From an uncultured Gammaproteobacteria bacterium (GTDB taxonomy: Bacteria > Patescibacteriota > Patescibacteriia > CAZBFB01): 63,086 nucleotides of DNA. The DNA lies in NCBI GenBank assembly GCA_964491085.1, contig CAZBFB010000046.1, positions 1 through 63,086 of the forward strand. The letters are read 5' to 3'. Positions 45,976 through 62,786 of the stretch are shown piece after piece. Position numbers and translations under genes: made by a program. The notes beneath the pieces were generated by a model that was given only the letters and a program-made list of their open reading frames with translations, did not search any database and was not told the DNA's origin. Each line of letters opens with the position of its first letter. Position 1 is the stretch's first letter.

Positions 45976-46098
45976 ATTCGAAATCCTAAGCCCGAAATCA
46001 GAAACGGGTTATAACCCCACCCCACCTCCCCTTAGATTAAGGGGAGGAGAGGAGGGGTTACGAATTTGTTTCTAGTTTCGGATTTCGTGCTGCGGATT
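45976..46098. repeat. Composite repeat: family-D arms (cgaaatc.../...gatttcg) with a family-B-like palindrome nested at 46014..46059
   Basis: ccgaaatcagaaac / gtttctagtttcgg inverted arms. The centre is aaccccaccccacctccccttagattaaggggaggagaggaggggtt. Confidence 0.7.
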
Positions 46099-46151: not shown

Positions 46152-47549
46152 ATGAAAATCATGGCGCATCCTCAAGATAACAATGACACTAGTTTTTTCA
46201 TGCCGGAGCAGTTTGTGTTTAAGGCGAAAAAGGGCTTGACTGAAGACACGGTGCGGGAAATTTCCGCGCACAAGCACGAACCGGCCTGGATGTTGGAATT
46301 TCGTCTCCAGGCGTATCAAATATTTTTGCAAAAACCGCTGCCGCTGTGGGGTGGCGATTTGTCAAAAATTAATTTTGACGACATTTATTATTATCTCAAA
46401 CCAACCGATCAATCCGAAAAAAGTTGGGACGATGTGCCGCGAGATATCAAAACCACGTTTGATCGTTTGGGTATTCCCGAGGCGGAGAAAAAATTTCTCG
46501 CTGGTGTCGGCGCGCAATACGATTCGGGCACTATCTATCACAGCTTGCAGGAGCATTTGCAAAAACAGGGCGTGATTTTTTTAGACACGGACGCGGCTCT
46601 GCAACAATATCCGGAATTATTCAAGCAATATTTCGGCACCATCGTCCCCGCGGCGGACAATAAATTCGCCGCGCTCAATTCGGCGGTCTGGTCGGGCGGC
46701 AGTTTTTTGTATGTGCCCGCTGGTGTGCACATTGAGTTGCCGCTGCAAGCATACTTCCGTATCAACGCCGAAAAAATGGGGCAGTTCGAGCGCACGCTGA
46801 TCATCGCCGAAGAGGGTAGTTCGGTGCATTATTCCGAGGGATGCACGGCGCCGAAATATAGTGCCAGTTCACTGCACAGCGCGGTGGTTGAAATTATTGT
46901 CAAACGCGGCGCGCGGGTGCAGTACACTACCATTCAAAATTGGGCGAAGAATGTTTATAATTTAGTAACCAAACGAGCACGCGCGTATCAAGATGCCACT
47001 ATGCTTTGGCTGGACGGAAATTTAGGGAGTTGTGTGACGATGAAATACCCGAGCGTGTATTTAATGGAGCCGGGGGCGCGGGCGGAAATTTTGTCATTGG
47101 CGTTCGCGGGATCTGATCAACATCAAGATGCCGGTGGCAAAGTGATTCATGTGGCGCGCGACACCAGCTCGCGGATTATTTCCAAATCATTGAGCAAAGG
47201 CAACGGCCGCACGAGTTATCGCGGTTTGGTGCAGGTGCATCCGGGTGCGACGGGAGTGAAGTCGCATGTGGTTTGCGATGCTTTGTTGCTTGATGAAACA
47301 TCGCGTTCCGATACCTATCCCACCATGAAAATTTATGAACCGGACACCGCGATCGCACACGAAGCCAATGTGAGTAAGTTGAGCGCGGAGAAATTATTAT
47401 ATCTCAAGAGCCGCGGCTTGTCCGAGGCGGATGCGCGCGGATTACTCATCAATGGTTTTTTTGAACCGATCGTGAAAGAGTTACCCATGGAATACGCCGT
47501 CGAATTGAATCGCTTGATTGATATGGAAATGGAAGGAGCGGTGGGGTAA
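46152..47549 (+). CDS. sufB: Fe-S cluster assembly scaffold SufB
   Basis: [36 protein letters not shown] and the C-terminal EMEGAVG. Confidence 0.92.
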
Positions 47550-47558
47550 GGTAATAAT

Positions 47559-48202
47559 ATGCTCATCTCGGCTCACGAACACAAAATAATTATCCAACCC
47601 CAAGCCCTTGATGGTGAAATTGTGCTTGAAGCGGAGGCGGATCTCATGTATCTTTTTTTATCGGTGAAAATACGCCGGCTGACGCTTCACTGATTTGTCG
47701 GTTGAACGGTCGGGGTGCGCGGGCAAATATTTTTGGATTTGATTTGCGTGCCCAGGGAAGCCATCGTTTGAGTCTGCGCTTAGAGTATGGTGCGGAACAA
47801 ACCTGGGGTCATGTATGGCTCACGTCAGTGTTGAGCGGTTCGGCAAAAAGCAAAGTTGATGCCATGCTTAAGATGGAGCAAACCGCCACCGGCGCGGATG
47901 GTTATTTTGCGCATCATACCTTATTGATTCCGACAAATGAACAAGCTAAACCATCGAGTCATACCCGTCCGGCGTTGGAAATTTTAGCGCACGACATTCG
48001 CGCCGGGCATGCCGCCACTACCAGCTCCCTTGATCCGGCTATGCTACTCTATCTGGGCACGCGCGGCATTGCTTCGGTCAGCGCGCGCCGGTTGTTGGTG
48101 GAAGGATTTGTGGCTCGTGCCATCACCCGTATTCCCGATCCGACCGCCCGCCAAGCGTGTGAAAAAATAGTCGGTGAGACATTAATGTCATTCTGGACTT
48201 GA
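47559..48202 (+). CDS. sufD: SufD-like protein, reading frame interrupted (apparent -1 shift at a T7 run, 47653-47659)
   Basis: The ATG 47559 frame stops at 47691-47693. The frame carrying the SufD C-terminal homology (ALEILAHDIRAGHAATTSSLDPAMLLYLGTRGI) is open from 47630. The two overlap around ttttttt. Confidence 0.65.
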
Positions 48203-51673: not shown

Positions 51674-51711
51674 GTCTGCGATCGTCAGCGTCAAGTCCGC
51701 GTTAGTCCGCG
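51674..51711 (+). repeat. Family-E repeat (gtcagcg/gtccgcg units with roughly 11-nt periodicity)
   Basis: tctgcgatcgtcagcgtcaagtccgcgttagtccgcg, related to 53917-54000, 60601-60636 and 62699-62736. Confidence 0.65.
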
Positions 51712-51732
51712 GCGGCGTTCTCGCCGCACGTT

Positions 51733-53194: not shown

Positions 53195-53208
53195 AGTTAA
53201 AGTTGAGT

Positions 53209-55644
53209 ATGAAATCATATAACCACAAAACAATCGAACCAAAATGGCAAAAACGCTGGGACGAAGCGCAGATTTTTGCCGCTAAAAATTTTGATTCACG
53301 GCCTAAATTTTATGGCTTGATCGAATTTCCGTATCCGTCCGGCGAAGGACTGCATGTGGGGCATCCGCGTTCCTATACAGCCATGGATATTATCGCACGC
53401 CAGCGCCGTATGGCCGGAAATAATGTTTTATATCCAATCGGTTTTGACTCATTCGGCTTGCCCACCGAAAACTATGCCATAAAAACCGGTCGTCCGCCGG
53501 CCGAGATTACGCGAGAGAATATTGCTAACTTTACGCGCCAGTTGAAAAGTATCGGATTTAGTTTTGATTGGTCGCGGGTAGTAATTACGAGTGAGCCAGA
53601 ATATTACCAGTGGACCCAATGGATTTTTTTGCAGTTGTTCAAGCATGGTTTGGCGTATAAAAAGAAACAACCGATTAACTGGTGCTCGTCTTGTAAGATT
53701 GGCTTGGCGAACGAAGAGGTGGTTGATGGTAAATGCGAGCGTTGCGGTACACCGGTGGAACAACGCAATAAAGAACAATGGATGTTGGCAATTACCAAAT
53801 ATGCTGATAAATTATTGGCTGGTTTGGATACGGTTGATTATATTGAGCGCGCCAAAGTCCAGCAACAGAATTGGATCGGCCGAAGCGAAGGCGCGGAAAT
53901 TGAATTTTTGCTTATCGCTCGCGGACCAACGCGGACTGGTACGCGGACCAACGCAGACCAATTTCTGCGTAAGTCAGCGTCAAGTCAGCGTGAGTCTGCG
54001 ACTTTGACTTCAGTCAAAGTATTCACGACGCGACCGGATACATTGTTTGGCGTGACGTATTTGGTATTGGCGCCGGAACATGAATTGATTGCACAACTAC
54101 AAGCGCAAATTTCAAACTGGCCGGAAGTTCAAAACTATATTGAGCAAGTAACAAAGAAATCCGAGCAAGAACGCATGGCCGAAGATCGGCAAAAAACCGG
54201 TATGGAATTAAAAGGAATTATGGCTATCAATCCGGCCAATAACGAAGAAATTCCGGTGTGGGTCGCTGATTATGTATTGGCCAGTTATGGGACCGGCGCG
54301 ATTATGGCCGTACCGCAACATGATGCCCGCGATCGCGAATTCGCGGAAAAATTTAATTTACCGATTGTTGACCGACCGTTAGTTTCGAGTGATGAGATTA
54401 TTCATAAAGTCGGCGGCACAAAAACCGTTAAGTATAAACTTCGCGACTGGGTTTTTTCGCGCCAGCGCTATTGGGGCGAGCCGATTCCGCTGGTTTTTTG
54501 TGAGAGCTGTAAAGATTGGATTCCTTTGCCGGAGGATCAATTGCCGTTGGTATTGCCGGCGGTGGAAAAATATCAGCCCACGGATACGGGTGAATCACCG
54601 TTGGCGGCTATGACGGATTGGGTGAACACAACCTGTCCTCGTTGTAACGGGCCAGCCCGACGCGAAACCGACACCATGCCTAACTGGGCGGGTTCAAGTT
54701 GGTATTACCTTGCATACACCATGCAAGGAATTTCCAATTTCCCCGCTTCGACTCGTCGAAGGCGAGGCGAGCAATTTCCAATTTCTAACTATAAGGAAAT
54801 ATTTAAGTATTGGCTGCCCGTTGATTGGTACAACGGTGGTATGGAGCACACGACGTTGCATTTACTGTATTCTCGTTTTTGGAATGAGTTTTTGTTTGAC
54901 ATCGGCGTAGTGCCGGTATTCGAGCCGTACGCCAAGCGTACTTCGCACGGTATGATTTTGGCGGAGAATGGTGAAAAAATGTCCAAGTCGCGAGGCAATG
55001 TGGTAAATCCTGACACGGTGGTCAAAGAGTTGGGTGCGGACACTTTGCGCGTCTATGAAATGTTTATGGGTCCGTTTGCCGATGCCGTTCCGTGGAGCAC
55101 CAAAGGCATAATTGGCTTGCGCCGCTTTTTGGAACGCGTCTGGCGATTGGGTGCTGTTGTCATTCCCGCGGAGGCGGGAATCCAGGCGGATGATTTTTTG
55201 TTGCATCAAACCATAAAAAAAGTCAGCGCGGATATCGAGGCCATGAAATTCAACACAGCGATTTCCCAGATGATGATTTTGGTGAATGCCTGGACGAAAG
55301 ACGGCGTGTCGTCACGCCCTGCCTGGCTTGATTTTTTAAAATTATTAGCCCCGTTCGCGCCGCACCTGGCGGAAGAATTATGGGAACAAGCCGGTGAGAC
55401 GGGATTTATTTCGCTGGCCGCATGGCCAAAGTATGATCCGGCCAGAATTATCACGGAAACGGTTACGCTCGTGGTGCAGGTGAACGGTAAAGTCAGAGCC
55501 ACCATCATCGTACCGACCGATGTCCCGGAAACGGAATTGATCGCCCGCGCCCGCGCCGAAAAAAATGTTCAGCAGTGGTTGGCAGAACTTGAGCCAAAGA
55601 AAACCGTCGTGATCAAAGGCCGCCTGATAAATTTTGTCGTTTAA
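53209..55644 (+). CDS. leuS: Leucyl-tRNA synthetase (with three in-frame repeat-derived segments)
   Basis: KWQKRW, PYPSGEGLHVGH (HIGH), VFTTRPDTLFGVTY, and KMSKSRGN (KMSKS). The start is taken at ATG 53209. Confidence 0.95.
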   Translation: MKSYNHKTIEPKWQKRWDEAQIFAAKNFDSRPKFYGLIEFPYPSGEGLHVGHPRSYTAMDIIARQRRMAGNNVLYPIGFDSFGLPTENYAIKTGRPPAEITRENIANFTRQLKSIGFSFDWSRVVITSEPEYYQWTQWIFLQLFKHGLAYKKKQPINWCSSCKIGLANEEVVDGKCERCGTPVEQRNKEQWMLAITKYADKLLAGLDTVDYIERAKVQQQNWIGRSEGAEIEFLLIARGPTRTGTRTNADQFLRKSASSQRESATLTSVKVFTTRPDTLFGVTYLVLAPEHELIAQLQAQISNWPEVQNYIEQVTKKSEQERMAEDRQKTGMELKGIMAINPANNEEIPVWVADYVLASYGTGAIMAVPQHDARDREFAEKFNLPIVDRPLVSSDEIIHKVGGTKTVKYKLRDWVFSRQRYWGEPIPLVFCESCKDWIPLPEDQLPLVLPAVEKYQPTDTGESPLAAMTDWVNTTCPRCNGPARRETDTMPNWAGSSWYYLAYTMQGISNFPASTRRRRGEQFPISNYKEIFKYWLPVDWYNGGMEHTTLHLLYSRFWNEFLFDIGVVPVFEPYAKRTSHGMILAENGEKMSKSRGNVVNPDTVVKELGADTLRVYEMFMGPFADAVPWSTKGIIGLRRFLERVWRLGAVVIPAEAGIQADDFLLHQTIKKVSADIEAMKFNTAISQMMILVNAWTKDGVSSRPAWLDFLKLLAPFAPHLAEELWEQAGETGFISLAAWPKYDPARIITETVTLVVQVNGKVRATIIVPTDVPETELIARARAEKNVQQWLAELEPKKTVVIKGRLINFVV
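53917..54000. repeat. Family-E palindromic dimer (84 bp, 28 codons) inside leuS
   Basis: It encodes ARGPTRTGTRTNADQFLRKSASSQRESA between GAEIEF and VFTTRPDT. The same units occur in intergenic DNA. Confidence 0.75.
54729..54785. repeat. Family-C-related element (57 bp, 19 codons) inside leuS
   Basis: aatttccaatttc direct termini flank the palindrome cgcttcgactcgtcgaaggcg. It shares aatttcca/ccaatttcc with 49543-49669. Confidence 0.65.
55158..55185 (+). repeat. Family-A hairpin repeat inside leuS (encodes VIPAEAGIQ)
   Basis: tgtcattcccgcggaggcgggaatccag. It has the same termini as the intergenic copies at 46.1, 48.2 and 49.5 kb. Confidence 0.85.
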
Positions 55645-55683: not shown

Positions 55684-56571
55684 ATGAATTTACGAAACGA
55701 TATCCAATCGCGTGCCCGAATTGCCGGCTTGACCCCTAATAAACTAAAAGGTCAGCATTTTTTGGTTGACGAACGAATACGAGACCGGGTATTAGCGGCC
55801 GCCATCCCCCACCTAACCTCCCCCTTGAGTACAAGAGGGAGGAAAGAATTAATTTTTCCTCCCTCTTCTCGAGAAGGGGGAGGCCAGGTGGGGGATGTCC
55901 TCGAAATCGGTCCCGGGCTTGGCGTTTTGACGGATGAATTAGTAAAACACGCTCGGCAGGTTGACGCCGTCGATATTGACGAGCAGGAAGTCATGTTTTT
56001 GCGCAAGCGTTATGTTGATAACAAAAATATCACCATTCATCATCAAGACGCCCTCGACTATGCGCCACTCGCCACCGGCTATTCGCTCATATCCAATTTG
56101 CCATACGAAATCACCACGCCGTTTTTGTGGCGCTATCTTTTGGAACTGCCGCTCAATCAGCGCCCGCAACAATTAGTGCTTCTGATTCAAAAAGAAGTGG
56201 CTGATCGCATACTGCAGAACAAGCCGCCGTTTAATCCGTTGGCGTTATTGGTACAATGGTTCGGCGAGGCCAAGCGCGTAATGAATGTTTCGCGTCACGC
56301 CTTTTGGCCCGAGCCGCGCGTTGAGGGAGCGGTGATAAAAATTACTCGTCAGGCCGATCTGGCGGATCCGGGCAAACTATTTGCATTAATCCGCGCCGGT
56401 TTTTCTCACCCCCGCCGTCAACTGGCAGTCAACCTCCGCGCCGCCGGCTACGCTCCCGCTGATATTACCCCTGCCCTCACCAACATCAACCTTCCCACTC
56501 TCGTCCGCGCCGAAGCGCTCGATCTGCCCGCCTGGCAGGCGTTTTCCCACAGTTTACCCGGACGCTCTTGA
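55684..56571 (+). CDS. rsmA: 16S rRNA (adenine1518/1519-N6)-dimethyltransferase RsmA/KsgA carrying an in-frame repeat insertion
   Basis: KGQHFLVD, VLEIGPGLGVLT (SAM motif I), ISNLPYEITTP. 31 extra residues lie between the first two motifs. Confidence 0.88.
   Translation: MNLRNDIQSRARIAGLTPNKLKGQHFLVDERIRDRVLAAAIPHLTSPLSTRGRKELIFPPSSREGGGQVGDVLEIGPGLGVLTDELVKHARQVDAVDIDEQEVMFLRKRYVDNKNITIHHQDALDYAPLATGYSLISNLPYEITTPFLWRYLLELPLNQRPQQLVLLIQKEVADRILQNKPPFNPLALLVQWFGEAKRVMNVSRHAFWPEPRVEGAVIKITRQADLADPGKLFALIRAGFSHPRRQLAVNLRAAGYAPADITPALTNINLPTLVRAEALDLPAWQAFSHSLPGRS
55804..55896. repeat. Family-B palindromic repeat, head-to-head dimer (93 bp) inside rsmA
   Basis: atcccccacctaacctcccccttgagtacaagagggaggaaa / gaattaa / tttttcctccctcttctcgagaagggggaggccaggtgggggat. 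The length is 31 codons. Confidence 0.9.
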
Positions 56572-60550: not shown

Positions 60551-60596
60551 TTTTCCTCCCTCTTCACCAGAAGGGGGAGGATTTAAGGTGGGGGAT
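60551..60596 (+). repeat. Family-B palindromic repeat, short form
   Basis: ttttcctccctcttcaccagaagggggaggatttaaggtgggggat. Confidence 0.85.
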
Positions 60597-60600
60597 TTTT

Positions 60601-60636
60601 CTGCGACAGTCGGCGTTAAGTCGGCATCAGTCCGCG
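60601..60636 (+). repeat. Family-E repeat, followed by the small hairpin cccacccca-gt-ggggtggg (60637-60655)
   Basis: ctgcgacagtcggcgttaagtcggcatcagtccgcg. It is roughly 80% similar to the reverse complement of 62699-62736. Confidence 0.6.
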
Positions 60637-60657
60637 CCCACCCCAGTGGGGTGGGAC

Positions 60658-60699: not shown

Positions 60700-60726
60700 C
60701 TAGCACTCGACTGTCGCGAGTGCTAA
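60700..60726. promoter_or_regulatory. CIRCE operator (HrcA binding site)
   Basis: CTAGCACTC-gactgtcgc-GAGTGCTAA versus the consensus TTAGCACTC-N9-GAGTGCTAA, upstream of groES. Confidence 0.88.
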
Positions 60727-60765: not shown

Positions 60766-62683
<1,918 letters not shown>

Positions 62684-62698
62684 TGCGCGAAGCGCATT

Positions 62699-62736
62699 CG
62701 CTGACTAACGCTGACTTTACGCAGACGGTCGCGGAC
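62699..62736 (-). repeat. Family-E repeat, preceded by the hairpin aatgcgc-gaa-gcgcatt at the groEL stop
   Basis: cgctgactaacgctgactttacgcagacggtcgcggac. Confidence 0.6.
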
Positions 62737-62754: not shown

Positions 62755-62786
62755 AAAAAAAGAGCCCGGGGTCGGGCTCTTTTTTG
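62755..62786. terminator. Rho-independent (bidirectional-type) terminator of groESL
   Basis: aaaaaa-agagcccg-gggt-cgggctct-tttttg. The 8-bp GC-rich stem is flanked by A and T runs. Confidence 0.8.

Follow-up and report, generated by a model that had tools for sequence, protein, structure and literature searches.

An in-frame insert built of two phased heptamer arrays in the leucyl-tRNA synthetase gene of a Patescibacteria bacterium, probably a nuclease-less derivative of an array-ended GxxExxY element

Main finding

The leucyl-tRNA synthetase (LeuRS) gene, leuS, of an uncultured Patescibacteria (CPR) bacterium carries a repeat-built insert of 81 bp. It is considered probable (about 0.7) that this insert is a nuclease-less derivative of an array-ended GxxExxY element, comparable to the Rickettsia palindromic elements (RPEs), and that it is tolerated in a permissive loop. 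The 81 bp would represent a head-to-head doublet of a 38-nt “phased heptamer array” that lacks the nuclease, each array having four KTCHGCG heptamers placed one DNA helical turn apart (10-11-10 nt). The array in turn would be the inverted terminal repeat of a small and widespread element of ~0.5 kb, whose full form carries a gene for a predicted PD-(D/E)XK nuclease of the GxxExxY family (PF13366/TIGR04256). The leuS copy is predicted to lie at the tip of a surface beta-hairpin leading to the CP1 editing domain, with the reading frame kept and the insert translated, and it may persist because the loop tolerates insertions, as with RPEs.

The leuS gene and its insert

The window, i.e., the whole stretch of DNA analysed, is 63,086 nt long, and leuS is at positions 53203–55644 of the plus strand. 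The assignment comes from the open reading frame (ORF) list, protein and PDB matches, and intact motifs. The best protein matches are Patescibacteria LeuRS with ~60% identity, a PDB LeuRS is matched at E 1e-193, and the HIGH-like HVGH, the KMSKS and the TTRPDT editing motif are all intact in the translation. Counting from the TTG at 53203 there are 813 codons; the gene call of the protein collection (P0001) has 811 aa and starts two codons downstream of this TTG.

The insert spans positions 53920–54000 and residues 240–266. It amounts to 27 codons, since position 53920 opens a codon and position 54000 closes one. The initial annotation, which had recognized that the insert begins at a codon boundary and that the frame runs through it, gave it 84 bp and 28 codons; the GCT at 53917–53919 lies outside both arrays and is to be left out. 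In the leuS frame positions 53917–54000 translate as ...IARGPTRTGTRTNADQFLRKSASSQRESA. The segment had also been described as a palindrome. Its arms are indeed inverted, but it is not a generic palindrome; it is a head-to-head pair of arrays of 38/39 nt, each with four KTCHGCG heptamers at a spacing of 10-11(12)-10 nt.

The left arm (53920–53958) is an array in reverse orientation with four CGCNGAC heptamers, a spacing of 10-12-10 and a core match of 24/24. On the minus strand it reads GTCTGCG ttg GTCCGCG tacca GTCCGCG ttg GTCCGCG, and it codes for RGPTRTGTRTNAD. A 4-nt spacer, CAAT (53959–53962), separates the arms and forms part of the hairpin loop; head-to-head doublets in other contigs have spacers of 3–14 nt. 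The right arm (53963–54000, forward) has a spacing of 10-11-10 and a core match of 23/24, and reads TTCTGCG taa GTCAGCG tcaa GTCAGCG tga GTCTGCG. Together with the spacer it codes for QFLRKSASSQRESA. Immediately adjoining its last heptamer is a junction hairpin (54001–54020, plus strand), ACTTTGACT-tc-AGTCAAAGT, with a 9-nt stem that is 100% complementary. This hairpin codes for TLTSVKV, and its outer arm falls in the host codons of the conserved ..KVFTTRPDT strand. Folding predictions for the insert region give −47 kcal/mol for RNA (z −4.4) and −32 kcal/mol for DNA (z −5.9). No target-site duplication is seen at the leuS copy, as the flanks TTATCGCT and ACTTTGAC are not repeated.

Arrays in the window and in metagenomes

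A scan of the window for four heptamers at 10/10–12/10 spacing revealed exactly five arrays at four loci, and shuffled sequences gave none at the same thresholds. The initial annotation had seen the ~11-nt units of the insert in non-coding DNA at 51674, 60601 and 62699, and solo arrays are present at these three loci. The first (51674–51711, plus strand) is intergenic, between an fn3-domain gene with its terminator and a LysM/M23 peptidase gene, and is followed by the hairpin gcggcg-ttct-cgccgc (51712–51727). The second (60599–60636, plus strand) is upstream of groES and is followed by cccacccc-agt-ggggtggg (60637–60655); a half copy of another palindrome family precedes this array. The third (62699–62736, minus strand) lies between the groEL stop codon (62683) and the groEL terminator (62756–62785), and on its own strand is followed by aatgcgc-ttc-gcgcatt (62682–62698). 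All five arrays are inside 11 kb and the other 51 kb have none. All are intact and no decayed copies are found, which is compatible with selective maintenance as well as with mobility.

After two of the intergenic arrays a promoter-like −35 hexamer follows at a distance of exactly 21 nt (51733 and 60658). As a general property, a role as promoter upstream elements was rejected, as TTGAC is not enriched after 100 arrays. No Rfam family covers the arrays at the gathering threshold over the whole window or at E≤5 over 51–63 kb, and a tRNA scan of the window found none. Weak Rfam matches were only microRNA-like, and to a different palindrome in rsmA.

More than 80 metagenome contigs of low GC content carry the same array, alone or paired head to head. 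The scan returned at least 120 loci, and the figures that follow are those among the matches listed; the search pattern demanded three exact heptamers, so that conservation of the core is partly built in. Low-GC contigs have 88 arrays of exactly four units, of which 69 show the 10-11-10 spacing, and their doublets comprise 20 that are head-to-head and none that are tail-to-tail. Taken singly, an array consists of four heptamers in direct repeat and is not palindromic. At their outer end 23–33% of arrays adjoin a local hairpin, vs ~3.4% of random positions. The arrays follow a motif grammar and their occurrence is non-random.

The array family is also often found in frame in other housekeeping genes. 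Among the matches listed, 39 of 86 elements continue the reading frame of an ORF that stays open for 50 codons or more on each side, and none of the 86 has ORFs on both sides and is out of frame or stopped. Hosts confirmed by Pfam are UvrB, DnaG, a class-V aminotransferase, ThrRS, GatB, UvrC, GAPDH, the GyrA C-terminal domain, MurB and RsmA/KsgA. The array-encoded peptides are stereotyped (TRTNADxTQTNAE and LRKSALSPRESA); arrays in other genes are translated in other frames and orientations, and arrays are also found after stop codons.

Similarity at the 14 variable positions is 0.455 within a contig and 0.433 between contigs, with 0.441 expected from composition. Copies in the same contig are therefore no more alike than copies in different contigs, and there is no signature of a recent copy-and-paste burst. 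A selected hairpin between the arms was rejected as well. In four canonical doublets the arms are just 25% identical at variable positions, so that covariation gives no support for arm pairing. A phage vector was likewise considered and left no sign; 27 pattern matches in viral contigs are essentially all high-GC chance matches without T..A spacers.

Association of arrays with GxxExxY genes

In a RecG-like gene (L182) and in lepA (L141) a reverse and a forward array enclose, in frame, a 123-aa domain that matches PF13366 at E 3e-33 and TIGR04256 at E 1e-35 and has the PD..ExK residues intact. The heptamer variant that brackets the nuclease in both genes is GTCHGCG. The RecG insertion site is between helicase motifs II and III, the LepA site is before LNLIDTPGH, and three lineages carry an insert at this same lepA site. 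Two other lepA copies (L215 and L216) have an in-frame stop within the nuclease part, with the downstream lepA still in frame. Nuclease-bearing elements make up only 2 of the 86 in the array-pattern sample, among the matches listed.

Free-standing GxxExxY genes show a similar arrangement. At 9 of 11 loci the ORF lies between the two arms of the top inverted-repeat pair; the arms are 17–55 nt long, 75–94% complementary and 350–490 nt apart, and consist of lineage-specific heptamers, e.g., TTCCGCG, ATCCGTG, GTCCGTG, ATCCGCG and AATCCTG. Inverted arrays of 3–4 heptamers at 10–11-nt spacing on both sides of a GxxExxY ORF were found in the array scan for L141 too. Many GxxExxY proteins have array-encoded C-terminal tails, e.g., ..QRKSAK and ..PRSSA. 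Arrays therefore flank GxxExxY genes in inverted orientation. In the leuS copy the two arms are present with no ORF between them, and a tblastn search of this 63-kb contig found no GxxExxY gene.

The structural model of the nuclease has a pLDDT of 91.8 and is closest to Cas4, lambda-exonuclease-like and restriction/homing endonuclease folds. All neighbours in the fold search were generic PD-(D/E)XK ones (E>1e-3), and a PDB sequence search gave nothing significant (best E 0.2–0.3, T7 endonuclease I included). We infer that the heptamers are bound by the nuclease, or by another factor, and that this protein moves or copies the element, and the leuS doublet would have derived from the full element through loss of the nuclease.

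It may also be asked whether the arrays serve the host, as sites for a regulatory or nucleoid-organising DNA-binding protein that are under selection, with four sites on one helix face, a secondary link to the nuclease, and a leuS copy that just happens to sit in a gene. The helical phasing, the intact cores with variable positions saturated even within one contig, the window without decayed copies and the two arrays placed 21 nt ahead of −35-like hexamers would all suit such sites, and arms that are not complementary at variable positions (n = 4) suggest protein recognition rather than a selected hairpin. However, the unenriched TTGAC, the copies within many unrelated ORFs and after stop codons in both orientations, the clustering of the window copies, and the inverted arrays, which regularly enclose GxxExxY ORFs as terminal repeats would, argue against it, and we regard host-serving sites as unlikely.

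That the element is removed after transcription like an intron, or bypassed, and is never in LeuRS, appears very unlikely. Among the matches listed, ORF-flanked elements are in frame and stop-free 39 times and frame-breaking 0 times, and removal before translation would not need the frame to be kept; nor was any Rfam family or intron signature found in the Rfam scans of the window. In favour of removal, pairing of the arms can bring the junctions together, L215 and L216 keep lepA in frame downstream of a stop, and RNA-splicing endonucleases, which have the PD-(D/E)XK fold, are among the weak structural matches to the nuclease.

The LeuRS loop

As judged by protein alignment, the segment is an insertion in LeuRS. 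The extra residues reported by the initial annotation are borne out, with 37 residues between GAEIEF and VFTTRPDT vs ~10 in typical LeuRS. The WIGRSEG..TTRPDT stretch has 57 residues here. In the genome collection 52 other loci were parsed, and 51 of them have 29–30; many of the 120 closest proteins have 30. The alignment with Thermus thermophilus LeuRS (1H3N) breaks exactly at the insert, query residues 236–271 standing opposite chain residues 235–243. The genome-collection scan with LeuRS returned relatives of ≤56% identity, none close enough for a comparison of sequences with and without the insert.

In the AlphaFold model, which is otherwise confident (mean pLDDT 85.9), the extra residues form a loop of low confidence where the beta-hairpin that enters the CP1 editing domain has its tip, with pLDDT <50 at residues 244–253 and 256–265, between strands 227–239 and 269–275. 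The insert is presumed to be translated, as a hydrophilic, probably disordered surface loop of 27 residues, and to be neutral for LeuRS; the 39:0 frame statistic, among the matches listed, offers indirect support for its presence in the protein.

A lineage-specific functional insertion in LeuRS, selected at the protein level and only incidentally like the non-coding repeats, is highly improbable. In its favour, the same hairpin tip holds varied insertions in many CPR LeuRS, whole domains included, but the peptide is not conserved. The closest homologues (~60% identical) have no insert or have unrelated ones at that loop, a phmmer search with a 33-aa segment of the window against 1.8 billion representatives gave 0 matches, and a word-indexed search with a 41-aa synthetic doublet peptide gave none. 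In addition, the core heptamer positions of both arms fit the DNA family consensus, other genes read this DNA in different frames and orientations, and the model gives the insert no structure. An assembly artefact is scarcely credible. In its favour, the window is an entire metagenome contig, its LeuRS stands as a singleton in the protein collection, and repeats can mislead assemblers. Against it, the insert keeps the frame exactly and falls in a loop, and equivalent in-frame copies are present in dozens of independent assemblies and samples.

Comparison with known systems

RPEs are short palindromic repeats with non-coding copies and in-frame copies in housekeeping genes (Ogata et al. 2000, as presented in PMC10969869). 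RPEs are read through as an extra peptide at fold-compatible sites, as is predicted for the arrays, and as a functional class the array family resembles RPEs in being multi-copy in coding and non-coding DNA, in frame and stop-free, and in a fold-compatible surface loop. RPEs are ~100–150 bp long, fall into families by overall sequence similarity and are found in Rickettsia only. To our knowledge no gene is linked to them. The arrays differ in having a 38-nt unit of four heptamers set by a motif grammar, in forming the ends of a nuclease gene, and in being spread over metagenomic lineages of widely differing GC content. Membership in the RPE sequence families is not claimed, because the host is a Patescibacterium and the unit structure is different, and no sequence relationship to RPEs is expected.

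As in MITE and REPIN/RAYT systems (PMC3733652, PMC3184786), non-autonomous inverted-repeat doublets far outnumber the protein-coding version with the same flanks, and as in REPINs the doublets form hairpins. With respect to MITEs, the leuS copy has terminal inverted repeats and no target-site duplication, and the same ends bracket a predicted GxxExxY PD-(D/E)XK nuclease, not a known transposase. A single REP unit is itself an imperfect palindrome of 20–40 nt with a GTAG or CGTC tag, whereas a single heptamer array is not palindromic. RAYTs are Y1 HUH proteins of the IS200/IS605 type and the array-flanked gene is PF13366 PDDEXK_3/TIGR04256; the linked protein is thus a predicted PD-(D/E)XK nuclease rather than the DDE or HUH/Y1 transposase of these systems. 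The arrays differ further in that copies in the same genome are not close copies and nearly half are inside genes.

Like inteins and homing endonuclease genes, the element is a selfish insert that codes for a predicted nuclease and lies in frame at conserved sites of essential genes. Unlike these, it has neither Hint blocks nor an intron, it is apparently retained in the host protein, repeat arrays are present at both ends, and nuclease-less derivatives are abundant. A Pfam search of the inserted RecG and LepA segments found PF13366 only and no Hint, with array-encoded peptides as flanks. PARCELs share translatable coding dyad symmetry, a wide and patchy distribution and an association with the mobilome. 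However, they are 25-residue amphipathic units in tandem tracts of membrane proteins or proteins of unknown function, not single loop insertions in housekeeping enzymes, and have no link to a GxxExxY gene.

The ends of Tn7 and Mu have several directly repeated protein-binding sites, inverted between the ends, and Tn7 TnsA is a PD-(D/E)XK nuclease with a restriction-enzyme fold that takes part in cutting. The array element is similar in having multiple phased repeats per end that are inverted between the ends. Elements of the Tn7/Mu type run to kilobases and have DDE transposases and target duplications; the array element differs in being ~0.5 kb as a whole with a single protein of 125 aa.

A wider interpretation is put forward tentatively, as it falls somewhat short of even odds: that arrays and candidate GxxExxY nuclease constitute an undescribed type of selfish element, with the leuS doublet as its minimal non-autonomous form. 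Such an element would sit in frame in surface loops of essential genes and be translated with them, its hosts would be Patescibacteria and, with other heptamers, other phyla, and its ends would be putative phased protein-binding arrays that are still intact after insertion. Its junction hairpins would be templated on the host flank, which would imply a mechanism of integration or copying unlike that of DDE, HUH or serine/tyrosine recombinases; the junction hairpins together with the lack of copy-to-copy similarity suggest a new kind of mechanism.

Significance

A search of the open-access literature found no description of the arrays, of in-frame palindromes in CPR or of GxxExxY gene mobility, and the array family is apparently undescribed so far. 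PF13366 is classed as “unknown” in PMC3424549. The flanking arrays and the nuclease-less derivatives give this large nuclease family a role that can be tested. In enzymes such as LeuRS the inserts show which loops are permissive. They would also explain many odd low-complexity loops (TNAD..., RKSA...) in CPR proteins, and gene calling, alignment and structure prediction can be misled by them. So far, selfish DNA lying in frame within essential genes has been seen as largely a peculiarity of Rickettsia. The same phenomenon now appears in an unrelated and very large radiation of uncultured bacteria, together with a candidate protein partner.

The repeat in leuS

The initial annotation described an in-frame palindrome of 84 bp (28 codons) in leuS that starts on a codon boundary. 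The sequence at positions 53917-54000 is as reported there and is translated as ..IARGPTRTGTRTNADQFLRKSASSQRESA; the palindrome and its codon-boundary start stand, but the repeat is 81 bp, or 27 codons. It consists of two head-to-head arrays, an array being a 38/39-nt run of four KTCHGCG heptamers phased at about 10-11-10 nt. The left array (53920-53958, minus strand) has four CGCNGAC heptamers with a spacing of 10-12-10, and after a spacer of 4 nt the right array (53963-54000, plus strand) displays TTCTGCG, GTCAGCG, GTCAGCG and GTCTGCG with a spacing of 10-11-10. Both ends of the repeat fall on codon boundaries, and its 27 codons represent residues 240-266 of the leuS product (53203-55644, residues counted from the TTG at 53203). 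The region folds much more stably than shuffled sequence, at -47 kcal/mol as RNA (z -4.4) and at -32 kcal/mol as DNA (z -5.9).

Scanned for four phased heptamers, the window contains five arrays and no more: besides the leuS pair there are three solo arrays, at 51674-51711 (+), 60599-60636 (+) and 62699-62736 (-). Shuffled versions of the window yield about 0.1 at a score threshold of 19 and none at 20-22; in the same scan, degenerate copies did not rise above noise. The genes near leuS are ordinary (suf/nifU, an fn3 protein, a LysM/M23 peptidase, rsmA, uvrA and groES-groEL). No gene for a GxxExxY protein, a PD-(D/E)XK nuclease family, is present in the window, which is one entire metagenomic contig of 63,086 bp.

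Status of the repeat in LeuRS

The window LeuRS is a singleton in the protein collection. Its best relatives, at about 60% identity, are from Patescibacteria (Magasanikbacteria, Uhrbacteria and similar), and none above 56% identity was found in the genome collection. From WIGRSEG to TTRPDT the window protein has 57 residues. Of the 52 other loci that could be parsed in the genome collection, 51 have 29-30 here, and many of the best 120 proteins have 30 (at times 24). The HMMER alignment with Thermus thermophilus LeuRS breaks exactly at the insert. In an alignment of 53 sequences, the baseline EF-x-I-K-N-S-E-x-K-I-K-VFTT forms a beta-hairpin, with 27 extra residues at its tip in the window protein; an AlphaFold model (mean pLDDT 85.9) places the insert, at pLDDT below 50, between strands 227-239 and 269-275. 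The 81-bp repeat is an insertion relative to other LeuRS. The extra length over typical LeuRS proposed in the initial annotation is borne out by the residue counts, the alignment break and the hairpin-tip position, and the homologues do not display the segment as ancestral and conserved at the protein level.

In CPR LeuRS, inserts have repeatedly landed at this same hairpin tip (window 53911-54020), and varied ones are found there in homologues P0004/L217, P0052/L218, P0025, P0049 and P0053 (P, protein collection; L, nucleotide loci). Some are palindromes of another kind, which start with GTCATT, end with ATGAC, encode VIASEAKQS..APRND and fold with z of about -3.4 to -3.5; other homologues have whole extra domains of 207-249 residues. 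A second extra segment of the window LeuRS (54729-54775, residues about 510-525, NFPASTRRRRGE...) is about 12 residues longer than in T. thermophilus, has pLDDT below 50, and is a small hairpin flanked by the 13-nt direct repeat AATTTCCAATTTC.

The array family in metagenomes

A search of the metagenome collection with an exact three-heptamer pattern found at least 120 loci. High-GC matches resemble chance, as do all 27 matches on viral contigs. On low-GC contigs the matches take a single stereotyped form, with an A/T-rich lead followed by an array with the consensus K-TCHGCG, T-n-a, GTCHGCG, T-n-a-a, GTCHGCG, T-n-a, GTCHGCG. The search pattern itself accounts for part of the conservation in units 2-4; it did not ask for unit 4, for the spacing of 10 nt before that unit, for a T following the heptamers or for the near-absence of G at position 4. 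Later array calling did demand at least 5/6 core matches and 9-12-nt spacing of every unit, including the fourth. Among the low-GC matches listed there are 88 arrays of exactly four units, 69 of them with 10-11-10 spacing, and 20 head-to-head doublets, leuS included, with spacers of 3-14 nt; tail-to-tail doublets are absent from these matches, and the other arrays are solo.

Arrays that enclose a nuclease

Three reverse/forward array pairs about 375-420 nt apart are present among the matches listed. In two of these pairs, the DNA between the arrays encodes a 123-aa domain in the reading frame of the host gene. One is in a RecG-like helicase (contig L182), between DEQHRWG and SATPIPRT, and the other in LepA (L141), just before LNLIDTPGH. 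The third, in a MurD-like gene (L195), was rejected as a nuclease-bearing pair: it consists of two unconnected solo insertions, and no nuclease lies between these. The domain inside the other two pairs belongs to PF13366 PDDEXK_3 (E 3e-33) and TIGR04256 "GxxExxY protein" (E 1e-35), with the PD..ExK residues intact. When its fold was modeled (pLDDT 91.8), all structural neighbors were of a generic PD-(D/E)XK type: Cas4, lambda-exonuclease-like proteins, restriction and homing endonucleases, and a splicing endonuclease.

Array and nuclease are also found at the same LepA site in two further LepA fragments from other samples. In-frame stops occur within the lepA-inserted domain in L215 (159-1028) and L216 (1632-2768), a TAA at a conserved Tyr and a TGA at a conserved Trp, and lepA stays in frame downstream. 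The nuclease may be decaying or the gene may be split, and the TGA could also reflect an alternative genetic code.

The DNA of nine further loci with free-standing GxxExxY genes, including an Omnitrophota MAG and a Chitinophaga genome, was also inspected. Overall, the best inverted repeat brackets the GxxExxY ORF in 9 of 11 loci, with arms of 17-55 nt that are 75-94% complementary and separated by 350-490 nt. Each arm is made up of three or four heptamers spaced by 10-11 nt, and the heptamer sequence varies by lineage (TTCCGCG, TTCTGCG/TTCTGCT, ATCCGTG, GTCCGTG, ATCCGCG, AATCCTG), and many GxxExxY proteins have array-encoded C-terminal tails. In the Omnitrophota element (L201, 1437-1499) the upstream array is broken between heptamers 2 and 3 by the small GC hairpin gccccgacttcgtcgggg.

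The simplest reading is that the full unit, of about 0.5 kb, would be an array, a nuclease and an inverted array, with nuclease-less doublets and solo arrays as its abundant derivatives; the leuS insert would be one such doublet. It is possible, however, that the arrays are binding sites that serve the host, as suggested by the helical phasing of the heptamers, by cores that have stayed intact, and by the position of two arrays, each 21 nt upstream of a -35-like hexamer. Yet arrays show no general association with promoters, and the bracketed nuclease ORFs and the scatter over unrelated ORFs fit a selfish element better.

In-frame copies in protein genes

Among the matches listed, 39 of 86 elements are read through in a frame that stays open for 50 codons or more to either side. 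In none of the 86 is the element flanked on one strand by two long ORFs that lie in different frames or are separated by a stop. Translation gives stereotyped peptides, TRTNADxTQTNAE in one orientation and LRKSALSPRESA in the other, with further frames also used. Host genes confirmed by Pfam include UvrB, DnaG, ThrRS, GatB, UvrC, GAPDH, the GyrA C-terminal domain, MurB, RsmA and a class-V aminotransferase with two insertions; by inspection, an IleRS-like gene with three insertions, MurD, P-type ATPases, FtsQ and the CCA-adding enzyme are added. The IleRS-like (class-I tRNA synthetase) ORF, in metagenome contig L085, has about 1250 codons, and one of its three separate insertions (..ADKRGLNADQRGKSQRKSALSPRESA-LDKWILARLNETI) is at the same site as an insertion in contig L184.

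The 39:0 ratio speaks for a requirement that copies within genes be translatable, and intron-like removal at the RNA level is therefore disfavored. Also disfavored is a protein-level adaptation of LeuRS, since the homologues have no peptide in common and the DNA heptamers are perfect. An assembly artefact is made unlikely by equivalent in-frame copies across many independent assemblies.

Junction hairpins and divergence of copies

A short perfect hairpin (stem of at least 7 bp) is found 0-3 nt beyond the outer, unit-4 end in 15 of 46 in-ORF arrays and in 13 of 56 arrays outside this set; the corresponding figures are 3.4% for random positions and 1% for the unit-1 side. In leuS it is present on the right side only (54001-54020, 9-bp stem). 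In lepA the outer arm consists of host-conserved codons in three lineages (VQM/TMI/RME on the left, ILNL/VLNL on the right), and the inner arm varies together with it. Insertion-free Saccharibacteria lepA has 9 residues at the site, about the count of non-array residues in occupied genes; judging by this near equality, host codons seem to have been replaced by the inner arms, not supplemented. The hairpins may be made from the target flank at insertion, be kept by compensatory change, or mark a preferred target.

Over 14 variable positions, similarity among the matches listed is 0.455 for arrays of the same contig and 0.433 for those of different contigs, with 0.441 expected from composition; the two arms of canonical doublets reach only 0.25 (n=4). 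Arrays of one contig thus resemble each other no more closely than those of different contigs, which is compatible with long-lived copies that have constrained heptamers, or with unusual copying.

Other features of the contig

A second palindrome family, CCTCCC...GGGAGG, is unrelated to the arrays and has 43-nt arms with 84% complementarity. One copy (55803-55897) lies within the rRNA dimethylase gene rsmA/ksgA (55684-56571) and is read through in frame as ..PHLTSPLSTRGRKELIFPPSSREGGGQVGD...; copies or half copies are also at 1727-1794, 46012-46060 and 60556-60598, the last intergenic and directly adjoining a heptamer array. A near-consensus CIRCE operator (60700-60726, CTAGCACTC-N9-GAGTGCTAA) is situated between a promoter-like site (TTGACA 60658 / TAAACT 60686) and groES, and by its sequence implies a putative HrcA-type heat-shock control. 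A full SufB/D-type gene (46152-47549) is followed by a 166-aa ORF (47702-48202) whose match to the SUFBD core profile is confined to the final 130 profile positions; this ORF may be a truncated or misstarted sufD.

Relation to known elements

The arrays resemble MITEs and REPINs in their non-autonomous inverted doublets and repeat-flanked gene, but differ in having no target duplication, no DDE/HUH enzyme and a single unit that is not a palindrome; the divergence of copies is also unlike recent MITE or REPIN bursts. The nuclease-bearing insert is similar to homing endonucleases and inteins in placing a nuclease at conserved sites of essential genes, but has no splicing domains. In PARCELs (PMC2996958), too, dyad symmetry goes together with coding capacity. 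A PD-(D/E)XK survey (PMC3424549) lists the function of PF13366 as unknown, and no description of GxxExxY mobility was found in open-access full text. The odds that arrays and nuclease together make up a new class of element are put at slightly less than even, about 0.45. Rickettsia palindromic elements are found in frame in housekeeping genes, at fold-compatible sites (summarized in PMC10969869); the leuS insert is functionally similar to these, but in another phylum and with another kind of repeat.
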